From positions 1-64,000 of IMG/VR virus record IMGVR_UViG_3300025237_000002: a stretch of DNA of 64,000 nt; one strand, 5' to 3'. Numbering within the stretch: the first letter of the stretch is position 1; each line of letters begins with the position of its first letter. This document shows, one piece after another, positions 18,556 through 45,475 of this stretch. This stretch comes from a virus. The position numbers and the translations under genes are program-made. The notes under the pieces are model-generated. The model was not told where the DNA came from. It saw nothing but the letters and a program-made list of their open reading frames with translations, and did no database searches.

Positions 18556-19010
18556 CTTGTTTGTTAAATATATTTGTAGTATATTTGCAGAGTCAAAATT
18601 CAGGAATGGTAAATTGGTAAAGCACCATGGGGGAACTGTGGGATGTAGGTTCGAATCCTTAAGTATAGTGAAAGCTAAACGACTATGGTAGTATTGTAGG
18701 TTCAAGTCCTACTTCCTGAACAACTAAATGGTTAATAATCAACCATTTAAAAAAAGATTAAAAAAAATGTGATTTTTGCTTGTTTATTAAATATATATAT
18801 AGTACATTTGCAGAGTCGAAAGAAAGTTATTATGGTTAACATAAAACTTTTGAAAATAAATTCAAAAAGACTTGTTTATTACAATATAATGTAGTATATT
18901 TGCAGAGTCGAAAGAAAGTTATTATAGTGGTAAGTTATCACAATAAAAACTTTTTTAAATTAAAAGCAAAAAGACTTGTTTATTAAAATAATAAGTTGTA
19001 TATTTGCAAA
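18556..19010 (+). promoter_or_regulatory. Four tandem near-consensus promoters (-7 elements at 18580, 18803, 18895, 18999)
   Basis: Each is CTTGTTT-n-TAyATTTGCArAGTC. Confidence 0.8.
18600..18720 (+). tRNA. tRNA-like RNA with two T-arms or an insertion in the anticodon arm
   Basis: TCAGGAA/TTCCTGA acceptor; D-loop TGGTA; two GTAGG-TTCRA-TCCT arms. Confidence 0.5.
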
Positions 19011-19049
19011 GTCGTTTAGAAATAGACGACACGTTCTTAAAAATATTGA

Positions 19050-19932
19050 AAATAATGGGGTGCTTATACTCCTTCCTCTTCGGGGGATAAGATAAACCTA
19101 GTAATAGGGATAAAGCGATGTATTCAAAGTGCATTGCGTTGAGAAGACTTCTTCGGGAGTTTTAACAATCTATGTAAGCAATTAATCACGAACCATACAT
19201 CGAGGGGCTACTGTCATAGATGAATTGAGTTCACCTCCTAGCTTCGGGGGGTTGAGTTAGAAATAGCAAAAGATGATTAATTAGTTTTTGGTTGAAACAT
19301 GTAAAAAGTGGATAGGCTGAATTCATCATAATTTGTTATGGAATGTTACCTTGAAATGCGGCACCTAACAGAGTCGTAGATTGATAGGAGATGAACCTTC
19401 GGGTGATTCTTTAAATGTAAATCTAATTAATGAAGAAATGACGTGACTGTAAAAAGTTGCAACGGGATGTTGATAGCTAAAGTGCTCAAAAGGCAACACG
19501 CTAGTCAATCGCAAGACACATCCTGTAAGAGAGAGCATCGCTATACAACTAAGGTTAATAGCCTTAATTTTTAATTTGATAAAAATTGTAAAGAGAAAGT
19601 TCTTGTGGACATGGATAAAAAATTAAGTTATTCTACTGAAAAATGTAGATGATGGAGGCTCTCAAGGCTGAAGTTAAAACGAGAGAAGTATCGTTAGTAA
19701 GAGGTGGGAACCTTTGCATCCCTTCCAAGGGAACTAGGTAATGAAAGTTGTTTATATCAATTCATGGTGAGAAAGGTGAAAGCCTAATCGTTCTCTTCGG
19801 AGAATAAAAGAGTTTGCAGTTGCTAATTTAAAACTGTCTTAGTGATACCTACGGACACGAAAGTGAAAGTGTGTGATATAGGGAAACCGAAAACGAAAGG
19901 TATTATAAACGCCCAAACACTCAAGCGTTTAA
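19050..19932 (+). ncRNA. Giant structured non-coding RNA (~880 nt; GOLLD/ROOL-class candidate or new class)
   Basis: No ORF of 60 aa or more; five CTTCGG motifs and many GNRA-capped stems; strong promoter and boxA-like site upstream; tRNA-like gene directly downstream. Confidence 0.75.
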
Positions 19933-19934
19933 TC

Positions 19935-20009
19935 GGGGATGTAGCTTAATAGAGAGCGGCTTGGTTTCAAATCCAAGAGGATGTAGTATCGATTCTACCA
20001 TCCCCACCA
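19935..20009 (+). tRNA. Aberrant tRNA-like RNA (8-nt anticodon loop TTTCAAAT, encoded CCA)
   Basis: GGGGATG/CATCCCC-ACCA; D-loop lacks GG; T-arm GTAG-TATCGATT-CTAC. Confidence 0.6.
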
Positions 20010-20059: not shown

Positions 20060-20129
20060 GGGTATACAATTAAGGTTCTCACCAACCTTTAAGGTTGTAT
20101 CATAGGTTCAAATCCTTCTATACCCACTA
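20060..20129 (+). tRNA. tRNA-like RNA (acceptor plus T-arm, no canonical D-arm)
   Basis: GGGTATA/TATACCC-ACTA; AGG-TTCAAAT-CCT; 3' end shared with 23870-24061. Confidence 0.45.
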
Positions 20130-20743: not shown

Positions 20744-20826
20744 CAAATTGAGTTTAGTTTTGCGGTTAAGTTCTCAATTAAATAAAAAACTGGTGGGGTG
20801 TTAAACCCCATCGTAAACGCCCAATT

Positions 20827-20902
20827 GACACTGGGATAGCTTAGTAAAGAGCAACCCGAAATTATAAGAGGTAGTGTGAGGTATTGAATCCTCAATCAGT
20901 GT
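20827..20902 (+). tRNA. tRNA-like RNA ending the first ncRNA operon
   Basis: ACACTGG/TCAGTGT; GCTT-AGTAAA-GAGC; TGAGG-TATTGAAT-CCTCA; T-run follows. Confidence 0.4.
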
Positions 20903-21008
20903 TTTTTAAAAATAAATGAAAATAAATTAGGATGTTTGAATACTTTTATGTATTTTTGCATACTTATTATAAACGCACTAAGTGCAAAACGATTAAAAAA
21001 TAGAAATT

Positions 21009-21110
21009 ATGACAACAGTAACGACATATACGAAACAGTATCAACCGAAGGGCGGGAAGCCACAAGGTCAACTGAGTATGCGTTGTTATAACGATGAAGA
21101 AGAAGGATAA
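21009..21110 (+). CDS. 33-aa attenuator leader peptide MTTVTTYTKQYQPKGGKPQGQLSMRCYNDEEEG
   Basis: A-rich start after the promoter element TATTTTTG (20951-20958); codons 2-21 are almost all Thr/Tyr/Lys/Gln/Pro/Gly. Confidence 0.8.
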   Translation: MTTVTTYTKQYQPKGGKPQGQLSMRCYNDEEEG

Positions 21111-21138
21111 GTTCTTAATCATAATAAACAATATAGCT

Positions 21139-21170
21139 AAACCCAGTTGAAATCTTCAACTGGGTTTTTT
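21139..21170 (+). terminator. Attenuator terminator upstream of the tRNA array
   Basis: 13-bp stem AAACCCAGTTGAA/TTCAACTGGGTTT with a T-run; the 5' arm can instead pair with TCAACTGAGT (21068-21077). Confidence 0.85.
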
Positions 21171-21235
21171 GCGTTCTATAGGTTTTTCATCACCTGATAA
21201 AAAAGATGAATCTTTGAAATATTGTATTTTTTTAT

Positions 21236-21308
21236 CGGGAAGTATATCAATTGGTAGATTACGTGCTTTGGGAGTACGAGGTTGGAGGTTCGAGTCCTCT
21301 CTTTCCGA
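21236..21308 (+). tRNA. tRNA-Pro(TGG)
   Basis: CGTGC-TTTGGGA-GTACG; canonical T-loop. Confidence 0.9.
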
Positions 21309-21368
21309 CTTAGGGAGACTGTTATTAATTCATAGGACCAATTGTGGTAATCATAGAATTAAATGTAT

Positions 21369-21444
21369 CGGGGTGTGGTGCAGTAGGCGATACACGCCTG
21401 TTTTGGAAACAGGAGGTTCGAGGGTTCGAATCCCTTTGCCCCGA
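21369..21444 (+). tRNA. tRNA-Pro(TGG)
   Basis: CCTGT-TTTGGAA-ACAGG; C1-G72, A73. Confidence 0.9.
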
Positions 21445-21450
21445 CAAAAA

Positions 21451-21600
21451 ATAAACTTGTAGTTTAAAATGGCAACAACAAGTATGTATGATAATTAGCT
21501 GAACAGGTACCGTCAGTGAAAGGTGTATAGAAAGGGGTTGCAGAATTAGAATGTGTGGTAGAGGACCGCAAGATGTGAGTTCAAATCTCACCAAAGTTAT
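21451..21600 (+). ncRNA. tRNA-like RNA with a large central insertion
   Basis: D-like arm, ~75-nt interior, T-arm GTGAG-TTCAAAT-CTCAC, imperfect acceptor. Confidence 0.4.
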
Positions 21601-21608
21601 TTTTATAT

Positions 21609-21703
21609 CTACCAATGCACGAGTCGGTTTAAGTGGCTGGGCTTGGACCCCAGTGACAGCTTCATGAGGTTGCTGTCCGTAGGTTCGAATCCTACTTGGT
21701 AGA
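21609..21703 (+). tRNA. tRNA-Pro(TGG) with a long variable arm
   Basis: CTGGG-CTTGGAC-CCCAG; variable arm GACAGC...GCTGTC. Confidence 0.8.
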
Positions 21704-21769
21704 CGAGTTGGAGACTGTTATTAATTCATAGGACTGTCAGATACAGTGTATAAGCATAGAATTAAATCT

Positions 21770-21843
21770 TGGGATATCGACTAGCGGTCCAAGTCATCTG
21801 GTTTTGAACCAGAAGAGCGAGGGTTCGAATCCCTCTATCCTAA
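21770..21843 (+). tRNA. tRNA-Gln(TTG)
   Basis: TCTGG-TTTTGAA-CCAGA. Confidence 0.9.
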
Positions 21844-21911
21844 CTACCAATATATTGTCTATTTAGTCGATATATTGGCAAAATAGATAACATATTGTCT
21901 ATTTTATTACT

Positions 21912-21996
21912 GGGGGTGCGCCAAAGTTGGAGAGTTGGGGCGGTCTGTAAAACCGTTGCGTAAGCTGAGTAGGTTCGATTCCTATCACCCCCACCA
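21912..21996 (+). tRNA. tRNA-Tyr(GTA)
   Basis: GCGGT-CTGTAAA-ACCGT, long variable arm, encoded CCA. Confidence 0.92.
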
Positions 21997-22006
21997 GTAT
22001 ATATAT

Positions 22007-22079
22007 TCCCTCGAAGCTCAAGTGGACGGGCACCCCGCTTTTAACGGGGAGATTGCGGGTTCGAAGCCCGCTGGGGGAA
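22007..22079 (+). tRNA. tRNA-Lys(TTT)
   Basis: CCCCG-CTTTTAA-CGGGG. Confidence 0.9.
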
Positions 22080-22124
22080 CTGAGAGAGTTATTACGTTCT
22101 CTTCGACAAGAAAAAACGTAATTT

Positions 22125-22206
22125 GGGAGTATTGAGCAACTGGTCGCTCAGCAGATTGTAAATCTGTCGCCTTCGGGCATTGTGGGTTCGAATCCCTCTA
22201 TTCCCA
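22125..22206 (+). tRNA. tRNA-Tyr(GTA)
   Basis: GCAGA-TTGTAAA-TCTGT; variable arm GCC-TTCG-GGC. Confidence 0.9.
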
Positions 22207-22208
22207 CT

Positions 22209-22276
22209 AGAGTTCGTCTAAGCTAAAAGGCATCGCCTGAACGGTGAAAATGTAGGAGAATACCCTATACTCTTAA
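22209..22276 (+). pseudogene. Degenerate tRNA (possibly Phe GAA)
   Basis: Cloverleaf with a non-canonical T-loop AGAATAC and a short acceptor. Confidence 0.35.
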
Positions 22277-22280
22277 CTAT

Positions 22281-22391
22281 GGCTATAGTACTACGGTGTA
22301 CCATTCGATGAATATATTGAGTTGAATGAGAGTGGATGTGTGAGTGTTACATCACATCTTCGGTTGGGTTCGAATCCCTAGGTAGCCACCA
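22281..22391 (+). ncRNA. Enlarged tRNA-like RNA with encoded CCA
   Basis: GGCTAT/GTAGCC-ACCA; GTAC-TACGGT-GTAC; long CATTC/GAATG and GATG/CATC arms; T-loop TTCGAAT. Confidence 0.55.
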
Positions 22392-22419
22392 GATGTATGT
22401 TTTTGTACATTAATAATAT

Positions 22420-22493
22420 ACCTTCGTAGCTCAACTGGCTAGAGCACCTGACTTTTAATCAGGGGGTTGGGGGTTCGAGTCCCTTCGGGGGTA
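22420..22493 (+). tRNA. tRNA-Lys(TTT)
   Basis: CCTGA-CTTTTAA-TCAGG. Confidence 0.93.
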
Positions 22494-22536
22494 CTGAGAG
22501 GGTTCTATGCTCCCTTAACACAGAAAAAGCATAACT

Positions 22537-22611
22537 GCTACCTTAGTATAAAGGCGATTACTCTGCATTTGTAACGCAGAAATCTCGGTTCGATTCCGTG
22601 AGGTAGCTCCA
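22537..22611 (+). tRNA. tRNA-Thr(TGT)
   Basis: CTGCA-TTTGTAA-CGCAG; encoded CCA. Confidence 0.85.
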
Positions 22612-22692
22612 AAACTACTAACTCATACCGAAAAGTATGTTAATTTGGATGATTATGTATACCACTAATCATCCAAGTGTTAGAACAAATAT

Positions 22693-22765
22693 TGCTCCAT
22701 GGTGTAATTGGTAACACGTCTGTTTTTGGTGCAGAAGAGTGTGGGTTCGAGACCCGCTGGAGTAA
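22693..22765 (+). tRNA. tRNA-Gln(TTG)
   Basis: TCTGT-TTTTGGT-GCAGA. Confidence 0.9.
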
Positions 22766-22772
22766 CAAATAT

Positions 22773-22846
22773 TGCCCTATGGTGTAATTGGTTAACATAC
22801 GAGATTTTGGCTCTCGTGAGTGTGGGTTCGAGTCCCACTAGGGCTT
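22773..22846 (+). tRNA. tRNA-Gln(TTG)
   Basis: CGAGA-TTTTGGC-TCTCG. Confidence 0.9.
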
Positions 22847-22888
22847 CAAAGGGAGATGTTCACCTAACATCTTTAAAAATAGGTTTAT

Positions 22889-22975
22889 CCCCTCATAGCT
22901 CAGTTGGTTTGGCGAAAGCCTTAGAGCATCCGTCTTTTAAACGGAGGGTCGTAGGTTCGAATCCTACTGGGGGGA
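22889..22975 (+). tRNA. tRNA-Lys(TTT) with a GGC-GAAA-GCC hairpin inserted in the D-loop
   Basis: TCCGT-CTTTTAA-ACGGA. Confidence 0.85.
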
Positions 22976-22982
22976 CAATAAA

Positions 22983-23053
22983 CGATGTGTGGTGTAATGT
23001 TAGCACGAGTTCCATTGGGGGACTTAGAAGAGGTTCAATTCCTTTCTCATCGA
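22983..23053 (+). tRNA. Degenerate tRNA, probably Pro(TGG)
   Basis: C1-G72, A73; irregular anticodon loop containing TTGG. Confidence 0.5.
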
Positions 23054-23058
23054 CAAAT

Positions 23059-23144
23059 GCGGTGTTAGTGTAATGGACAAATATTCTAGATGAAAACACG
23101 CAACCATTCAGGTTGAGATAGAGGTTCGATTCCTTTATGCCGCT
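23059..23144 (+). tRNA. Degenerate Gly-like tRNA (D-loop insertion, 5-nt loop ATTCA)
   Basis: GCGGTGT/ATGCCGC, U73, canonical T-arm. Confidence 0.45.
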
Positions 23145-23321
23145 CTAAAAATGATTGATATGAAAGAAATGAAATTTAGATATACTGGTGAATTATCTGA
23201 AGAAGCTAAGGTTAAATTAGATAAATTAAAGTTAAGAAAAGAAACAACATTGAAAAACCTACAAGATGATTATGACTCTGGTAAGTTTGACGATGAATTT
23301 AAAAACCTATAAAATTATGTT

Positions 23322-23513
23322 ATGGATATTGAGAATTATTCAATCGGAGATGTATTAAGGAACAAACAAGGAATTAATGGTAAGGTGATTGGAAAGACGA
23401 TAAATTCAATTAATTTATATCATACAGCTAGAAGTAGTAAAGGTATTAATTGTACTCAATGGTACACATTACAAGACATAATTAAAAATTTTAAACATGC
23501 CGTCATAGTTTAA
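23322..23513 (+). CDS. hypothetical protein inside the tRNA array
   Basis: 63-aa ORF whose 3' end overlaps the tRNA-Thr 5' end. Confidence 0.5.
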   Translation: MDIENYSIGDVLRNKQGINGKVIGKTINSINLYHTARSSKGINCTQWYTLQDIIKNFKHAVIV

Positions 23514-23574
23514 GTGGTTAGAATCCTAGTGTGGTATATTAGGGGTGTCGCTTCGATTGCGATTGATGGCTCCA
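23499..23574 (+). tRNA. tRNA-Thr(GGT)
   Basis: CTAGT-GTGGTAT-ATTAG; encoded CCA. Confidence 0.8.
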
Positions 23575-23620
23575 CGACCAGCTGATAGTCTGGGATAACA
23601 ATAAATTAAAACTATCAAAA

Positions 23621-23694
23621 GCGAGTAACGCATAAGTGGTGGTGCGCCAGCCTTCCAAGCTGGAATAGAGTCGGTTCGATACCGTCTACTCGCT
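23621..23694 (+). tRNA. tRNA-Gly(TCC)
   Basis: CCAGC-CTTCCAA-GCTGG; U73. Confidence 0.9.
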
Positions 23695-23789
23695 CAAAAA
23701 AGGGGTGCTTTAATATAACCAATGACAATAGCGTTATAAATTGCTGAACTTTCTACCAAATTGATTTTTGTCGATGATATAAGGTAGTT

Positions 23790-23862
23790 GTCCTATTAGT
23801 TTAACTGGATAAAACTGGGGGTGCTAAACCCTCGGATGTGGGTTCGAATCCCATATAGGAAA
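23790..23862 (+). tRNA. tRNA with CTA at the anticodon position (amber-suppressor-like, G33)
   Basis: GGGGG-TGCTAAA-CCCTC; canonical D- and T-arms; 1-72 mismatch. Confidence 0.65.
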
Positions 23863-23869
23863 CAATTAA

Positions 23870-24061
23870 GGGTATACTTTTGGTGTGATGAACCGACCCT
23901 CCGAGAATGGAGGTGCTTTAACTAGCTAAGTATTGAAAACGTTGAGAACATAAACTAAAGTATAGATGTACGAATACTGGGTCTGAATTATGTTAGTAGG
24001 CAAGTAAGTGGATACACGACTTCCAATCGGTATCTAGGTTTGAAACCTTCTATACCCACTA
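23870..24061 (+). ncRNA. ~190-nt RNA closed by a tRNA-like acceptor and T-arm
   Basis: GGGTATA...TATACCC-ACTA; 3' part resembles a Gly(TCC) D/anticodon/T region. Confidence 0.45.
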
Positions 24062-24118
24062 AAAACTATTTACTTATATTTAATTTTTTAGTATATTTGT
24101 TTATAAAAATTAAATATT

Positions 24119-24418
24119 ATGTATGATGAAAAAGTAAGTATGGGAAATAACCCTATGACAGTTAAAAAGTTGTCAGAATTAGAAAATATAATTTCTAACT
24201 TTAAAGTAGAATTAAGTAAATTAAGTGAAAATAATTATGAATTACTTAATAAGGTAGATAAAATGGTTGGTTGCGAACTACAAGATGATTGTGCAGAAAA
24301 ATCAAGTCCAACGGATGAAAATATTGTTGATGTCCTCAACGAATGTATCCGTGAATTAGGTTATAAAAATAATAATTTTAGAGAGCAATTAAGTAGATTA
24401 GGTGGTATTGTTGGATAA
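24119..24418 (+). CDS. hypothetical coiled-coil protein
   Basis: 99-aa ORF after a promoter motif. Confidence 0.6.
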   Translation: MYDEKVSMGNNPMTVKKLSELENIISNFKVELSKLSENNYELLNKVDKMVGCELQDDCAEKSSPTDENIVDVLNECIRELGYKNNNFREQLSRLGGIVG

Positions 24419-24479
24419 CCATTAAGAATGATTACTGGAGTAGAGTACCTTAATGGTCAGGTTGATAACCTCTACAAAT

Positions 24480-24551
24480 GCGGGAATAGCTCAACGGTAG
24501 AGCGTTAGATTACCAATTTAAAGGTTGTGGGTTCGAATCCCATTTCCCGCC
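24480..24551 (+). tRNA. tRNA-Gly(ACC)
   Basis: Gly-type body GCGGGAA/TTCCCGC; TTAGA-TTACCAA-TTTAA. Confidence 0.85.
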
Positions 24552-24560
24552 CAATACAAT

Positions 24561-24646
24561 GCAGTAGTCGCATAGAGGTCGATTGCCCCAGATTTCCAAT
24601 CTGGTAAGATAATATCACATCGCTGGTTCGAATCCAGTCTACTGCT
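24561..24646 (+). tRNA. tRNA-Gly(TCC) with a long variable arm
   Basis: CCAGA-TTTCCAA-TCTGG; ~17-nt variable region. Confidence 0.85.
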
Positions 24647-24709
24647 CAACACGAGTTTCATCTGAAACATGTATTTTAAACATGGTTTCAGACATAACTC
24701 AAACATTAT

Positions 24710-24793
24710 GCCTACGTCCCATAGAGGTCGATTGGACTAGATTTGTAATCTAGAATGGAAACATCATCGTGGGTTCGAATCCCTCCGTAGGCT
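24710..24793 (+). tRNA. tRNA-Thr(TGT) with a long variable arm
   Basis: CTAGA-TTTGTAA-TCTAG; variable arm ATG-GAAA-CAT. Confidence 0.85.
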
Positions 24794-24860
24794 CATAAAA
24801 AATACAATTTTCTTGTGTAATCCAATTTTTTTCATTATCTTTGTAATCTAAATACAAACT

Positions 24861-26377
24861 ATGAGAGGCACACTTGAACCACTTCAATTAGAAGAAGGTA
24901 AGTCTTACAACATTAAGACTTCACATACACACAATTTCAAATCTGGTAAAATTCACATTGATAAGGTTTATCCTAGTCCATGCTACTCTCCTATGGATAG
25001 TATGATTGATAATGCTGAAGATATGGTTGTTTTTAGAATTTGGTCCAAAAGACAACGTTGGGTTTGGTTTGTTTCAACGTATTGGGAAATATGTTTGTAT
25101 AATGATTGGAAATATGAAAAATAATTATTCATACACTTGCACACCTCAAATTAATTTCTTATATTTGCAATAACATATTAATTATGGTTTATAAAAACAA
25201 TTGCCAGGCTCTTAATTATTACGATGAATTAGGAAGACCTGTATATAAAAATAAACATCAATTCGCAAGTCATGAATTGGCTGTTAAAGCTTGTAAAATT
25301 TATAATCTTAAGGAACAACAAATTAAAAAGTTGGTAACATATAAGTGTAATATTTGTTTTAAATATCATATTGGTAGAAATGGTAATGACATTAAACCTA
25401 AGTATATTAAAAGAATAAAACAAGAAAACATTATAAATCGTAAATCCAAACATCAATTTAAAATAATAGGAAAAATAGAGTTATGAATTTTGAAAAATTA
25501 GCAAACAAGGTTATAAAACGTTTAAAAAAAGAAGGTGTAGTATGCTACCTTTGGCATTCAACCGCTAGTGCATACATTCGTTTTCAAGATTGTAGAATGG
25601 GGTCTATTAGACTAGGTGACCATAAAGGTCGTAGCCAATATGGTTATATGTGGAACATACGTAGTGATTTCCCTAAAGGTCATAAGAAATGGCACAAAAT
25701 TGAAGGTAAGTGGAGATTTTATGCGCACAGTGAAAATTGGATTGCGATACTTCCACATATCTTAGAAAGAAAATCAAGAGTTGAACAGTGGGGTGAAAAT
25801 AAACATAAATATTTCATACCTGAACATAAAAAAAAATAATATGAGTGATATGAGATTTAGTATCGAGGAAATTAAGAAGTACATTCTATCACAAGATAGT
25901 ATGGGAGATATTCTTTATAATTTAAACGAAGCGAAAATTATTGAAGCTAATACGATAAGGTGTCCAAATTGTGAAGTAGAAACTTCAGAAACAATGTTGG
26001 AGGTCTTCAATGGTAATTGTGAAACATGCGCTGAGGAATTAGAAGAAGATGAGTAATATGGAAACTAAAAATAAATAACGATGAATAACTCAAAGGAAAT
26101 TGAAAAACTTAAACGAGAAGTTGAAGAACGTAAATTAAAAATTGAGAGTCTTTTGACTAATCAAAATAAATTCGAATCTTTACCAGAGAACTATAAATTG
26201 GCTGAAAAAATTCACAGTAAAACTTGTAGTTGGAATCATACGGATGGTTGTAGTTGGGAATATGAAAATTGGGATGGTAAATTAAGACAATGTAGGAGCC
26301 ATTATGTAGTAATTGCTGATAGGGTATTAAAAAAAGTGCCTTATGAAATGGCTGCAATGACTTTAGATAATATATAA
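24861..26377 (+). CDS. Run of small hypothetical ORFs (24861, 25184, 25483, ~25841, 26081)
   Basis: Tightly packed + strand ORFs with promoter motifs at ~24836 and ~25160. Confidence 0.55.
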
Positions 26378-26787
26378 TGAAAATATTTAAAGAATTTAAG
26401 AATTTTGCGGTCAAGGGTAATATGATGGATATGGCTATCGGTATTATCATTGGGGCATCTTTCAACAAGGTTTTAAACATAATGGTAAAGAAGGTATTAC
26501 TTCCACCATTGAGTTACATATCTAGCGGTGTTAACCTAAGCGAGAAGCGTGTAATTCTTCAAAACGCACAAGAAGGTATGGAAGAGATTTCAATCCAGTA
26601 TGGGGCACTTATAGAAGCCTTCATCGATTTCTTTGTAATAGGTCTGGTCCTATTCATTGTGGTTAAAATAATGAATAGAATTAAAGATAAGGCTGACGAT
26701 GTTACAGATTTAACATTCAGAACACCTAAGAACATTCAATTATTATCTAGTATTGAAACTGAATTAAAGAAACTAAACGAAAAATAA
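26377..26787 (+). CDS. mscL: Large-conductance mechanosensitive channel
   Basis: KEFKNFAVKGNMMDMAIGIIIGASF; YGALIEAFIDF; C-terminal LLSSIETEL. Confidence 0.92.
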   Translation: MKIFKEFKNFAVKGNMMDMAIGIIIGASFNKVLNIMVKKVLLPPLSYISSGVNLSEKRVILQNAQEGMEEISIQYGALIEAFIDFFVIGLVLFIVVKIMNRIKDKADDVTDLTFRTPKNIQLLSSIETELKKLNEK

Positions 26788-28234: not shown

Positions 28235-29122
28235 ATGAATAATTGGATTAAGGAATGGGTGAATATGCCTCATTTTGTTATTCCAACTAGAGATACTGAA
28301 AAGAGGAATCAAATTGATATTACGGATGTTCAAAAGATTGCAGACCTTAACACAAGCAAGCAACCAAAGTATCCAATTTATATAATATCAAAAGGTAGAT
28401 TCAAATACCCACAGACAGCAAGAGCTTTAGAAGGTCTTGGAATTGAATACAAGATAGTTATTGAACCAACTGAGTATGATGACTATTCTGCGGTAATAGA
28501 TAAAGAACGAATATTAATACTACCTTTCAGTGACTTAGGTCAAGGTTCAATACCAGCAAGAAATTGGGTATTAGACCATTCAATAGCTAATGGAGATAAA
28601 AGGCATTGGATATTAGATGACAATCTAAATGGGTTTGGTTATCAAAAAGGAGGTCGGAGAATTACTACAAAGACTAATGGTGATTTGTTTAGGGAGTGTG
28701 AAGACTTTGTAGATAGATATAAGAATATCAAAATTGCTGGAATAAGATATAGGTTTAATCACAATTATGTGAAATCACCTTATTATTTGAACACTCGTAT
28801 TTACTCTTGTATCTTGATGGATAACACCATACAACATAGATGGAGAGGGAAGTATAATGAAGATACCGATTTAAGTTTAAGGGTATTGAAGGATGGAGAT
28901 TGTACGATGTTGTTCACTTGGTGCTATTGCAACAAGGCTGGAACGTTAAGTATGAAGGGTGGTAACACCAATACAGTATATGGAGATACTGATAATAGGA
29001 AAGAATTCGCTGAAAGTTTAAAACAACAACACCCAGATGTGGTAAAAGTTGTTTGGAGATATGAAAGATGGCATCATGAAGTAAACTATAAGGGATTTAG
29101 AGAAAACAAATTAATTAAATGA
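28235..29122 (+). CDS. GREB1-like / TET-associated (TAGT) GT-A glycosyltransferase
   Basis: YPIYIISKGR, ARNWVLDH, WILDDN, EDTDLSLRVLKDG, KGGNT. Confidence 0.75.
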   Translation: MNNWIKEWVNMPHFVIPTRDTEKRNQIDITDVQKIADLNTSKQPKYPIYIISKGRFKYPQTARALEGLGIEYKIVIEPTEYDDYSAVIDKERILILPFSDLGQGSIPARNWVLDHSIANGDKRHWILDDNLNGFGYQKGGRRITTKTNGDLFRECEDFVDRYKNIKIAGIRYRFNHNYVKSPYYLNTRIYSCILMDNTIQHRWRGKYNEDTDLSLRVLKDGDCTMLFTWCYCNKAGTLSMKGGNTNTVYGDTDNRKEFAESLKQQHPDVVKVVWRYERWHHEVNYKGFRENKLIK

Positions 29123-43807: not shown

Positions 43808-45475
43808 ATGGAGAAAGAAAGAGGAATCACAATTAGTTCTGTAAATGAAGTGGTATTACCACAAAGAAAAGTCTTTGACACACCAAGACTATTACAAGCT
43901 GATGCTTACACTGTAGGTTCAGATGGTTTTCAATCTGTGAAAGCTAAAGAGAAATCAACTTATTATATTGTCTTCCGTAGACAACTATCAACAGTAAACC
44001 CAACCTTATATAATAAGGGTGACGATAGAATGATATTTGAAGGTCTAGGAACTTATTTAGAAAAATTATTCTACAAACCAGTTACTCACGAAGAAATTGA
44101 TACCGCTAAAGAATTCTTGAAAACGTTCAAAGCGACTTCATTAGGATTAGCTGAGTATGCTTTTCCTGAAGCTATGTGGCGTAGAGTAGTAGACGAATTC
44201 AATGGTAGACCACCAATCAAAATTAAGGCAATGCCTAACGGTTCTGTGGTTTATCCTAACGAACCAATCATACAAATAGAATCAATGGTTAACGGTATGG
44301 GTGAACTAGCCGCTTGGTTTGAGTCAACACTTCTTAAAGTGTGGGCACCTTCTGAACGTGTTACCCAAAACGAACATTGGTTATCTAAGTTGAAAAATAT
44401 GCTTAGAAAGGTTTATGGTACTACCATGAGCGAAGAAGATATTCACTTCAAAGCATCTCTTATGCTAACAGATTTCGGTGATAGAGCTGGAATGACAAAC
44501 GAAGAAAGTGAAGTATTAGGTATGGCTCACTTGTATACATTTCCAGGAACTGATAACTGCCAAGGAGCATATCAAGCATGGGAAAATGCGGGAAGAGTTC
44601 CAATCGGAAGTTCAGTTAATGCACTAGCACATAGAAATATACAAGCGTATGACGTAGAGAATGACTGTTATGAAGCGATTTATGATTTCTGTCAAAACGG
44701 AGAATTCATTTCAATGGTTTCTGACTGTTACGATTTCTACACTGCGAATGAAAAATACATACTACCTCTTGCTAAAAGAAGTATTGCGGAAGGTAACAAT
44801 AAGGTAGTTGTTTCAAGACCTGATTCAGGTAATGCGAAAGAACAAGTACTTTGGTTATGTAGATTAGCTGTAAGAAATGGTTTATACACAACTCAAGTTA
44901 TCGATGGTGTTGAATGGAAATTCGCCACATCACTTAGATTTATTGAAGGTGATGGAATGACGTGGGCTGATATGTGGGAAATCATTGAAGCTTTATTAGA
45001 AGCTGGATTTGCACCTGACGCTTGGGGATTATTCGGAGTAGGTGGTGGATTAAGAAACCCACTTAAACGTGATAACACTTCAGCAAAATATGCTTTATGT
45101 GCAAAAGGAGATGACAACGAAGGAGTTGTTAAATTCTCAGATACCCTAGGAAAGACAACACTTCCAGGACCTTTTAAAATCCTAAGAACACCTTGGGCTT
45201 TAGAAAATAAGGAAACAATCGTATTTGAACATGAAGATGGTGACGATGCAATGGTGGTTTACTTCGATGGTAGTAACATTTGGAAACCATTTGGAGTAGG
45301 ACAAGATGATAACTTCTTGGTCACTAGAGACAGAATAAGAACACAATGGGATTCAATGCCATTGAACCTTACAACTGCTACAAATCATAATTATCCAGCT
45401 TCAGAGGCTATTCTAAATGAGCGTAGAAGATTACTTAAAATTCATGCTCCTAAGAAACAAGCTAAAAACTATTAA
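43808..45475 (+). CDS. nadV: Nicotinamide phosphoribosyltransferase family protein
   Basis: ADAY, DFGDR, GTD, SDCYD, RPDSG, EGDG, GVGGGL, RD. Confidence 0.85.
   Translation: MEKERGITISSVNEVVLPQRKVFDTPRLLQADAYTVGSDGFQSVKAKEKSTYYIVFRRQLSTVNPTLYNKGDDRMIFEGLGTYLEKLFYKPVTHEEIDTAKEFLKTFKATSLGLAEYAFPEAMWRRVVDEFNGRPPIKIKAMPNGSVVYPNEPIIQIESMVNGMGELAAWFESTLLKVWAPSERVTQNEHWLSKLKNMLRKVYGTTMSEEDIHFKASLMLTDFGDRAGMTNEESEVLGMAHLYTFPGTDNCQGAYQAWENAGRVPIGSSVNALAHRNIQAYDVENDCYEAIYDFCQNGEFISMVSDCYDFYTANEKYILPLAKRSIAEGNNKVVVSRPDSGNAKEQVLWLCRLAVRNGLYTTQVIDGVEWKFATSLRFIEGDGMTWADMWEIIEALLEAGFAPDAWGLFGVGGGLRNPLKRDNTSAKYALCAKGDDNEGVVKFSDTLGKTTLPGPFKILRTPWALENKETIVFEHEDGDDAMVVYFDGSNIWKPFGVGQDDNFLVTRDRIRTQWDSMPLNLTTATNHNYPASEAILNERRRLLKIHAPKKQAKNY

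Follow-up and report, generated by a model that had tools for sequence, protein, structure and literature searches.

A candidate leader-peptide attenuator, with codons matched to the tRNA genes that follow it, ahead of a phage tRNA array

We analyzed a window of 64,000 nucleotides from a marine giant phage, the first 64 kb of the 110.5-kb IMG/VR virus record IMGVR_UViG_3300025237_000002 (CheckV completeness, 31%; GC content, 32.6%), in which an array of 20 tRNA genes is preceded by a promoter, a short open reading frame (ORF), and an intrinsic terminator. We think it probable that this leader cassette is a ribosome-mediated (leader-peptide) transcription attenuator that gates the tRNA array. 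The evidence is the anatomy of the cassette, the statistics of its codons, its conservation, the co-variation of leaders with arrays in related giant phages, and compensatory changes in the antiterminator helix (2:3). A reading made from the sequence alone had proposed such a device, and its four components (promoter, 33-codon ORF, terminator, and array) were all located where it had placed them. The features are as follows.

20930-20958, + strand: promoter of the Bacteroidota type (TAnnTTTG), with the -33-like element GGATGTTTGAAT, a 9-nt spacer, and the -7 box TATTTTTG at 20951.
20965-21008, + strand: 5' untranslated leader, which is predicted to fold into a small hairpin, GCACTAAGTGC (20975-20985), followed by an A-rich start context.
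21009-21110, + strand: leader ORF of 33 codons plus a stop codon, encoding MTTVTTYTKQYQPKGGKPQGQLSMRCYNDEEEG; the frame and the length (32-33 codons) are kept in four homologues.
21012-21071, + strand: putative sensor run, codons 2-21, in which 19 of 20 codons specify Thr, Tyr, Lys, Gln, Pro, or Gly.
21018-21091, + strand: hairpin 1:2, a candidate anti-antiterminator and possible pause hairpin that spans codons 4-27 (-22.6 kcal/mol).
21068-21077, + strand: region 2, TCAACTGAGT, which nearly repeats the 3' arm of the terminator and would pair with 21141-21150 (ACCCAGTTGA) as the antiterminator.
21139-21173, + strand: intrinsic terminator (regions 3:4), with a 13-bp stem (21139-21167), a 3-nt loop, and a T-run, 66 nt 5' of tRNA-Pro.
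21174-21235, + strand: conserved spacer with TCTTTGAAATATTGTA, kept in three of the four homologues (L020, L021, and L022) and absent from the fourth (L023).
21236-24794, + strand: tRNA array of 20 genes as called by ARAGORN, 17 of them for Pro, Gln, Tyr, Lys, Thr, or Gly and 3 atypical.

We infer that the leader is translated, that ribosomes stall in it, and that read-through is conditional. Transcription would start at the 20951 promoter and perhaps also enter from four strong promoters farther upstream. A ribosome would load on the A-rich leader and translate the 33-codon ORF. If the Thr, Tyr, Lys, Gln, Pro, and Gly codons are read fast, the ribosome would cover or pass region 2 (21068-21077). 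Region 2 would be masked in this way or taken up again by the 1:2 hairpin, so that the 3:4 terminator would form and transcription would halt at about 21170. If any of the six aminoacyl-tRNA pools ran short, the ribosome would stall within codons 2-16 and free region 2, which would then pair with the 5' arm of the terminator. No terminator would form, and the polymerase would enter the tRNA genes for the same six amino acids. Since its product would relieve the stall, the device would regulate tRNA supply by negative feedback.

The codon composition of the run is an extreme outlier. The count of 19 in 20, first given in the sequence-only reading, was reproduced, and the next-best 20-codon window had just 14 codons in the set; this comparison took in all six frames of the 110-kb record, with 1318 ORFs that have 21 codons or more. 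We also shuffled the 60 nt of the run 200,000 times by mononucleotide and 20,000 times by dinucleotide, and no shuffle scored 19 or more (maxima, 17 and 16, respectively). The two alternative frames of the run score 4 and 6, and these six amino acids combined make up 31% of the predicted proteins of the phage. The leader also includes codons that are rare in the phage: ACG, CAG, CCG (3% of Pro codons), GGC (4% of Gly codons), GGG, and CTG.

The tRNA genes behind the leader fall in the same set. ARAGORN identified Pro(TGG) x3, Gln(TTG) x4, Tyr(GTA) x2, Lys(TTT) x2, Thr(TGT x2 and GGT), and Gly(TCC x2 and ACC), and it called no tRNA elsewhere in the 110-kb record. Thus, every confidently assigned sense tRNA is of one of the six isotypes, as had been claimed, but the copy numbers given with that claim are slightly different, as for Gln (four by ARAGORN) and Lys (two).

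The leader ORF has its own expression signals. Using a matrix built from 31 promoters of the phage (training median, 29 bits; genome-wide 99.9th percentile, 3.9 bits), the 20951 promoter scores 24.9 bits. The words and spacing of its layout (GGATGTTTGAAT-N9-TATTTTTGCAT) are those of the promoters at 2307 and 8008, which precede the protein genes at 2335 and 8043, and it is nearly identical in the homologue L020. The ORF begins 51 nt 3' of the -7 box, and the context score of its ATG (10.06) exceeds that of 99% of the gene starts in the training set and ranks among the best 0.2% when all ATGs are scored. A AAAAAATAGAAAnnATG-like stretch is also present 5' of the leader ORFs of other cassettes. 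These signals bear on whether the terminator merely closes an upstream operon of stable RNAs (18.6-21.1 kb), in which case the ORF would be a chance frame within a structured RNA. We found no other strong + strand terminator between 19930 and 21139, and the RNA of the ORF folds into a stable hairpin in which some nucleotides never vary, both of which suit that explanation. However, it does not account for the consensus promoter, the start context, the outlying composition, the frame that is kept in homologues, or the co-variation of leader composition with arrays (see below), and we consider it very improbable.

When we compared the 6.5-kb island to the INPHARED phages with BLAST, we found scattered tRNA matches and no relative; searching IMG/VR with three neighboring proteins as anchors gave no relatives, and the terminator pattern, exact or gapped, had no matches in IMG/VR. 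In JGI metagenomes, the same gapped pattern matched 17 loci, and the sole relative among them was L020, a TARA scaffold that is 85% identical to the window over 20747-21448. Three more homologues (L021, L022, and L023) were found in IMG/VR by degenerate back-translation of nine leader codons. L021 is in a complete 360-kb genome (G001) and L023 is in a 96-kb contig (G002). In Logan contigs from four runs, the DNA relatives X2 and X19 span the leader with small indels. RNA contigs from two marine metatranscriptomes cover an 880-nt RNA upstream but not the leader, which is uninformative either way.

All four homologues have a TAnnTTTG promoter, an in-frame ORF of 32-33 codons with a conserved start, a terminator, and then tRNA-Pro(TGG), and the arrays behind them contain only Pro, Gln, Tyr, Lys, Thr, and Gly. 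The homologous leaders keep the ORF and match their own arrays. The replacements in the peptide (V4 to Y, T, or I; "TK" to "QT"; Q21 to K; L22 to T; and M24 to Y) are mostly within or into the six-amino-acid set, and 15 of the 31 variable sites in the leader homologues are third codon positions. This pattern looks like selection on membership in the set, not on the peptide sequence.

The sequence-only reading had suggested asking whether the amino acid content of leaders co-varies with the isotypes of their arrays, and it does: different leaders track different blocks in both G001 and G002. We listed all of the tRNAs of these two genomes, took the clusters, and sought a promoter, a terminator, and an ORF 5' of each block. 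The leaders and the blocks behind them are as follows.

G001, leader MNNIITTYTKQYQPKGGKPQGQ...: block Pro, Tyr, Gln, Lys, Thr, Gly.
G001, leader ...IFENDFIVAEADF...: block Asp, Glu, Phe, Ala.
G001, leader ...LVTLLSLCLLVLV...: block Cys, Val, Leu.
G001, leader ...ISIHINSIMNWRRNSS...: block His, Trp, Ser, Asn, Arg, Ile.
G002, leader ...VVLLVLCLLVV...: block Cys, Leu, Val.
G002, leader ...FDFAFFAAEADE...: block Phe, Glu, Asp, Ala.
G002, leader MKTTTTYQTQYQPKGGKPQGKTGY...: block Pro, Gln, Tyr, Gly, Lys.

When we scored the best 12-residue window of each leader against each block, the true pairing was the best of 24 permutations in G001 (42 versus 30 for the next) and the best of 6 in G002 (35 versus 17). 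Overall, leader codons match the adjacent tRNA block in the window, in its four homologues, and in five other cassettes. The four leader-gated blocks of G001 (L024, L026, L027, and L028) together represent 19 amino acids, and the tRNA-Met genes are elsewhere in the genome. Since these four cassettes have nearly the same promoter and first transcribed bases (TATATTTGCACTATATATTAA), the sequences suggest that they may be switched on together.

A similar unit is present in an isolated phage, the Caulobacter phage phiCbK (L034, JX100813 51300-52220). There, a block of tRNAs for Phe, Val, Ile, Ile, Val, Gln, and Gln follows a promoter of the TTGACA type, the ORF MSKTYRQFVRQIQVVRNIRAGRSRMADEGFRD (MSKTYRQFVRQIQVVRNI...), and an annotated terminator. 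In the same phage, tRNAs for Pro, Pro, Lys, Lys, Leu x3, and Ser x2 come after a terminator and gp083, a protein of 45 amino acids with much S, L, P, and K. Apart from the unit with MSKTYRQFVRQIQVVRNIRAGRSRMADEGFRD, two units of phiCbK match their own blocks only weakly. Because phiCbK carries a unit of promoter, ORF, and terminator before a tRNA block, the design is not confined to the clade of the window phage.

We also considered whether the RNA might sense tRNAs by codon-anticodon pairing without translation, as a T-box-like element with multiple specifiers. Although the leader does show codons for each tRNA of the array, these belong to an ORF whose start context is excellent and whose stop codon is conserved, and the 1:2 hairpin has most of the run in base pairs. 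Rfam gave no T-box (stem I with its specifier loop and the conserved T-box sequence) at the gathering threshold and no T-box or other leader family even at E values up to 1. A T-box-like mechanism therefore seems extremely improbable. We rejected it, along with a chance ORF and a terminator that serves only the upstream RNA operon.

Turning to the switch itself, helix 3:4 has a predicted energy of -19.5 kcal/mol, and the terminator stem is kept in all of the homologues, with one double change (C-G to U-A) in L021. The complementarity of 21068-21077 to the 5' arm of the terminator at 9 of 10 positions, noted in the sequence-only reading, was reproduced. In equilibrium folds of the whole transcript, the terminator was always chosen, as also happens with classical attenuators, so we used folds of the nascent RNA instead. 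With the RNA extending to the terminator loop and the ribosomal A-site at codons 1-16, the 2:3 helix (21068-77:21141-50) was the best structure; without a ribosome, or with the ribosome at codons 17-29, this helix was not formed. Both conformers fold as had been proposed.

The homologues show compensatory changes in the antiterminator. In L021, a C in the 5' arm of the terminator is replaced by U, and its partners in the 3' arm and in region 2 have both changed from G to A. In L023, a U in the 5' arm is replaced by C while region 2 changes from A to G (A-U to G-C), and the A.C mismatch of helix 2:3 is a G-C pair in L022 and L023. (The MAFFT alignment places region 2 of L023 one column out of register, so we read the pairing sequence by sequence.) Furthermore, region 2 has a recurring position: when we sought the upstream segment that pairs best with the 5' arm, it fell at codons 18-27 of the ORF in 9 of 10 cassettes (P = 0.002-0.09 from shuffles). 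This includes four of the five non-homologous cassettes, whose terminators are unrelated and whose partners are in the ORF right after the cognate run (P = 0.004-0.022); the exception is the Asp/Glu/Phe/Ala (D/E/F/A) cassette of G002 (P = 0.67). Because of the compensatory changes and this recurring position in the ORF, we find the predicted antiterminator convincing through comparative evidence, not through the pairing in the window alone.

The 1:2 hairpin is strong in the window and in L020, where one outer pair has a compensatory change (A-U to U-A), and its apex, GGC-GGGAA-GCC, is invariant. As its outer stem is lost in the more distant homologues, this predicted element is less certain than the rest of the switch.

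Several observations weigh against an attenuator. First, the 9 of 10 pairing is marginal on its own (P of about 0.04 from shuffles and 0.08 from genomic windows), and the antiterminator of the window is less stable than the terminator (-10 to -12 versus -17 to -19.5 kcal/mol). Second, the cognate run reaches codon 21, yet a ribosome at codons 17-21 would mask region 2. Third, the outer stem of 1:2 is broken in L021-L023, and several cassettes have no strong 1:2 hairpin. Fourth, L021-L023 were found via the peptide core, so the conservation of those 9 codons is partly by construction, although L020 and the non-homologous cassettes were found without using the peptide. Fifth, codons 11-19 are invariant at the nucleotide level, including at third positions, so RNA structure, instead of codon choice, may account for the rare GC-rich codons and for some of the conservation. 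Sixth, the 62-nt spacer between the terminator and tRNA-Pro is conserved and has a weak promoter-like site at 21209. Finally, in G001 and in G002, a consensus promoter follows the terminator of the D/E/F/A cassette and precedes its tRNA block.

The last two points concern promoters that could feed an array from behind the terminator. In the window, we found no TAnnTTTG promoter between 21171 and 23282, and the best score of the promoter matrix in the spacer, 5.5 bits at 21209, makes a poor promoter candidate. This site is not kept as TAnnTTTG in the homologues. It had been said that a main promoter downstream of 21170 would count against attenuation, and there is no good promoter between the terminator and the first tRNA. 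In L027, L030a, and L031, a mere 6-11 nt separate the terminator from the first tRNA, too little space for a promoter, so these blocks would be transcribed only by read-through.

These results argue against another explanation, in which the leader is an independent small gene or small RNA and the array is transcribed from an unrecognized promoter, for instance by a phage RNA polymerase or with a phage sigma factor. A promoter, an ORF, and a terminator do make a complete unit, a giant phage may use promoters that are not recognizable here, and the site at 21209, for all its weakness, is promoter-like. But an independent gene leaves unexplained why, in seven cassettes, the amino acids of the leader are those of the tRNA block behind it, why a copy of the terminator arm lies within the ORF and co-varies with it, and how a block can begin so close to the terminator in three cassettes. 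We judge it quite unlikely. More broadly, an independent gene, a chance ORF, and a T-box are all disfavored because none of them explains the co-variation of leaders with arrays or the co-varying copy of the arm.

In the D/E/F/A cassettes, the promoter behind the terminator implies a second input, so that some blocks are not fed by read-through alone. These promoters are at position 1377 of L026 and position 2572 of L030, and about 470 nt between the terminator and the block are unassigned in G001. They fit with an explanation in which the sensor is translated but its read-out is not a terminator switch: it might instead affect Rho access, or the processing or stability of the read-through RNA, or the cassette might tune part of the expression of the array on top of another promoter. 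The cassettes that lack a strong 1:2 hairpin would fit as well, and so would the spacer after the terminator, in which the word TCTTTGAAATATTG is conserved; a similar word occurs at 19035 (19035-19050), ahead of the large upstream RNA. This word might serve in antitermination, as a boxA-like signal, or in processing. However, the copy of the terminator 3' arm within the ORF in 9 of 10 cassettes, which co-varies with the arm, points to the terminator itself as the switch, and a read-out of another kind seems unlikely to us. Leader-peptide attenuation at the terminator remains our preferred explanation, and all of the computational checks that the sequence-only reading had suggested turned out in its favor.

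If the cassette is an attenuator, its trigger could be the codon demand of an AT-rich phage, starvation, or host defenses that cleave tRNAs. The design would accommodate anticodon nucleases as the trigger, but this is speculation, and plain feedback between supply and demand fits equally well.

The region upstream of the leader has features of its own. Four tandem and near-identical promoters (CTTGTTTATTAAA...GTAGTATATTTGCAGAGTC) at 18569-19007 lie 5' of a large RNA, and since we found no strong + strand terminator between these promoters and 21139, their transcripts may also reach the attenuator. This RNA of about 880 nt (19053-19930) is free of ORFs and lies 5' of the leader. At 19462-19768, it contains a weak match to the Rfam family GOLLD, which at 42 bits (E = 1e-8) is below the gathering score of 150. 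Two contigs from marine metatranscriptomes, 878 and 895 nt long, correspond to about 19053-19926 and 19059-19955, with about 20 differences; because they match its extent almost exactly, this RNA must be present in the sea as a separate molecule. The layout is the same in G001, with tandem promoters, about 1.2 kb, and then the leader cassette. Rfam also has tRNA matches outside the array at 18600-18720 (121 nt, 30.8 bits) and 19935-20006 (44.6 bits), and there are T-arm-like repeats at 20103 and 20426; ARAGORN called none of these.

Within the array, the three atypical tRNA-like genes are at 22889-22976, 23059-23145, and 23790-23863. The anticodon loop of one has 6 nt; another, "Ser(AGA)", has a long arm and a weak anticodon stem with a mismatch; and a third has an amber-reading CTA anticodon but G33. 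Small ORFs (53, 63, and 99 amino acids) break up the array at 23151-23513 and 24119-24418, and the promoter at 24092 belongs to the 99-amino-acid ORF. The small ORFs are skipped in contigs of relatives, where 23573 follows 23136 across unknown letters and 24429 follows 24059. These ORFs look like insertions into an array that was ancestrally continuous.

Every gene is on the + strand, and the promoters are of the Bacteroidota type. The window also encodes an MscL mechanosensitive channel (26377-26787; Pfam E = 1e-31), a TET-associated glycosyltransferase (28235-29122; E = 2e-34), and a nicotinamide phosphoribosyltransferase (43808-45475). TET-associated glycosyltransferases are a type of enzyme tied to DNA hypermodification.

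Full-text literature searches found no account of leader-peptide attenuation of tRNA genes, in agreement with the statement in the sequence-only reading that no attenuator of a tRNA array by multi-isotype sensing was known. The putative switch is a known mechanism applied to a new class of genes, and its closest counterparts are the multivalent thr and ilv leaders. thrL senses Thr and Ile, and ilvL of ilvGMEDA senses Ile, Val, and Leu; other leaders of amino acid operons are trpL, hisL, and pheL. As in these enterobacterial operons, the cassette has a short and putatively translated leader rich in regulatory codons, predicted alternative helices 2:3 and 3:4 (less certainly 1:2), and an intrinsic terminator, and more than one amino acid would be sensed. 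(Attenuation by the pheL leader is described in PMC3082878.) In contrast to the enterobacterial leaders, six amino acids are represented here instead of two or three, region 2 is inside the ORF, about 30 nt before the stop codon, and the signal to be relieved would be tRNA supply itself. There is no sequence relationship. Also, the classical scope of attenuation is genes for amino acid biosynthesis or synthetases, whereas the genes downstream here are 20 tRNA genes and not biosynthetic enzymes.

A second parallel is E. coli pheST, which encodes phenylalanyl-tRNA synthetase and is attenuated via the pheM leader. This is also leader-peptide attenuation of a gene for the translation apparatus that senses the decoding of cognate codons, but pheM controls a synthetase, senses one amino acid, and is cellular instead of viral. 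T-box riboswitches resemble the proposed switch in that the state of a specific tRNA decides between the terminator and the antiterminator. Unlike the proposed switch, a T-box works without translation: uncharged tRNA binds to it directly, and it has a single specifier codon.

Among accessory tRNA arrays that are conditionally expressed, the nearest published example is the trn operon of Anabaena sp. PCC 7120, a long tRNA array that is silent until induced by translational stress (PMC8421152, PMC10272220). Both arrays would be off until translation is impaired, but the Anabaena operon is controlled at its promoter, where the repressor TrcR binds direct repeats (PMC8421152, PMC10272220), without codon-specific sensing. 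The words "leader," "attenuat," and "terminator" are absent from the text of PMC8421152. Phage tRNAs are also known to act against host defenses: a T5 tRNA-Lys counters PARIS (PMC11464382), and phage tRNAs have variants of the anticodon loop (PMC10264068). As in our proposal, lost host tRNAs are replaced, and Lys and Tyr are among the known targets. However, these papers (PMC10264068, PMC11464382) describe the action of the tRNAs and no sensing switch, and leaders, attenuation, and terminators are not mentioned in PMC10264068.

Why phages carry tRNA genes, and how these genes are regulated, has been debated for decades, and the main ideas are codon compensation and counter-defense. A codon-matched attenuator would show that phages regulate their tRNA supply by sensing the speed of decoding directly, and it would extend leader-peptide attenuation from amino acid metabolism to the tRNAs themselves. 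The composition of a leader would also tell which tRNAs are co-expressed, which would aid genome annotation, and the modular cassettes could serve as natural codon-specific sensors of translation stress. A broader proposal, which we offer tentatively and hold to be possible but doubtful, is that giant phages of several lineages split a near-complete set of tRNAs into blocks, each with a codon-matched leader attenuator; they would thereby gauge host decoding by isotype group, replace only the tRNAs that are missing, and detect tRNA-cleaving defenses such as anticodon nucleases. If this is true, then block-wise attenuators would link phage tRNA arrays to counter-defense via a sensing mechanism.

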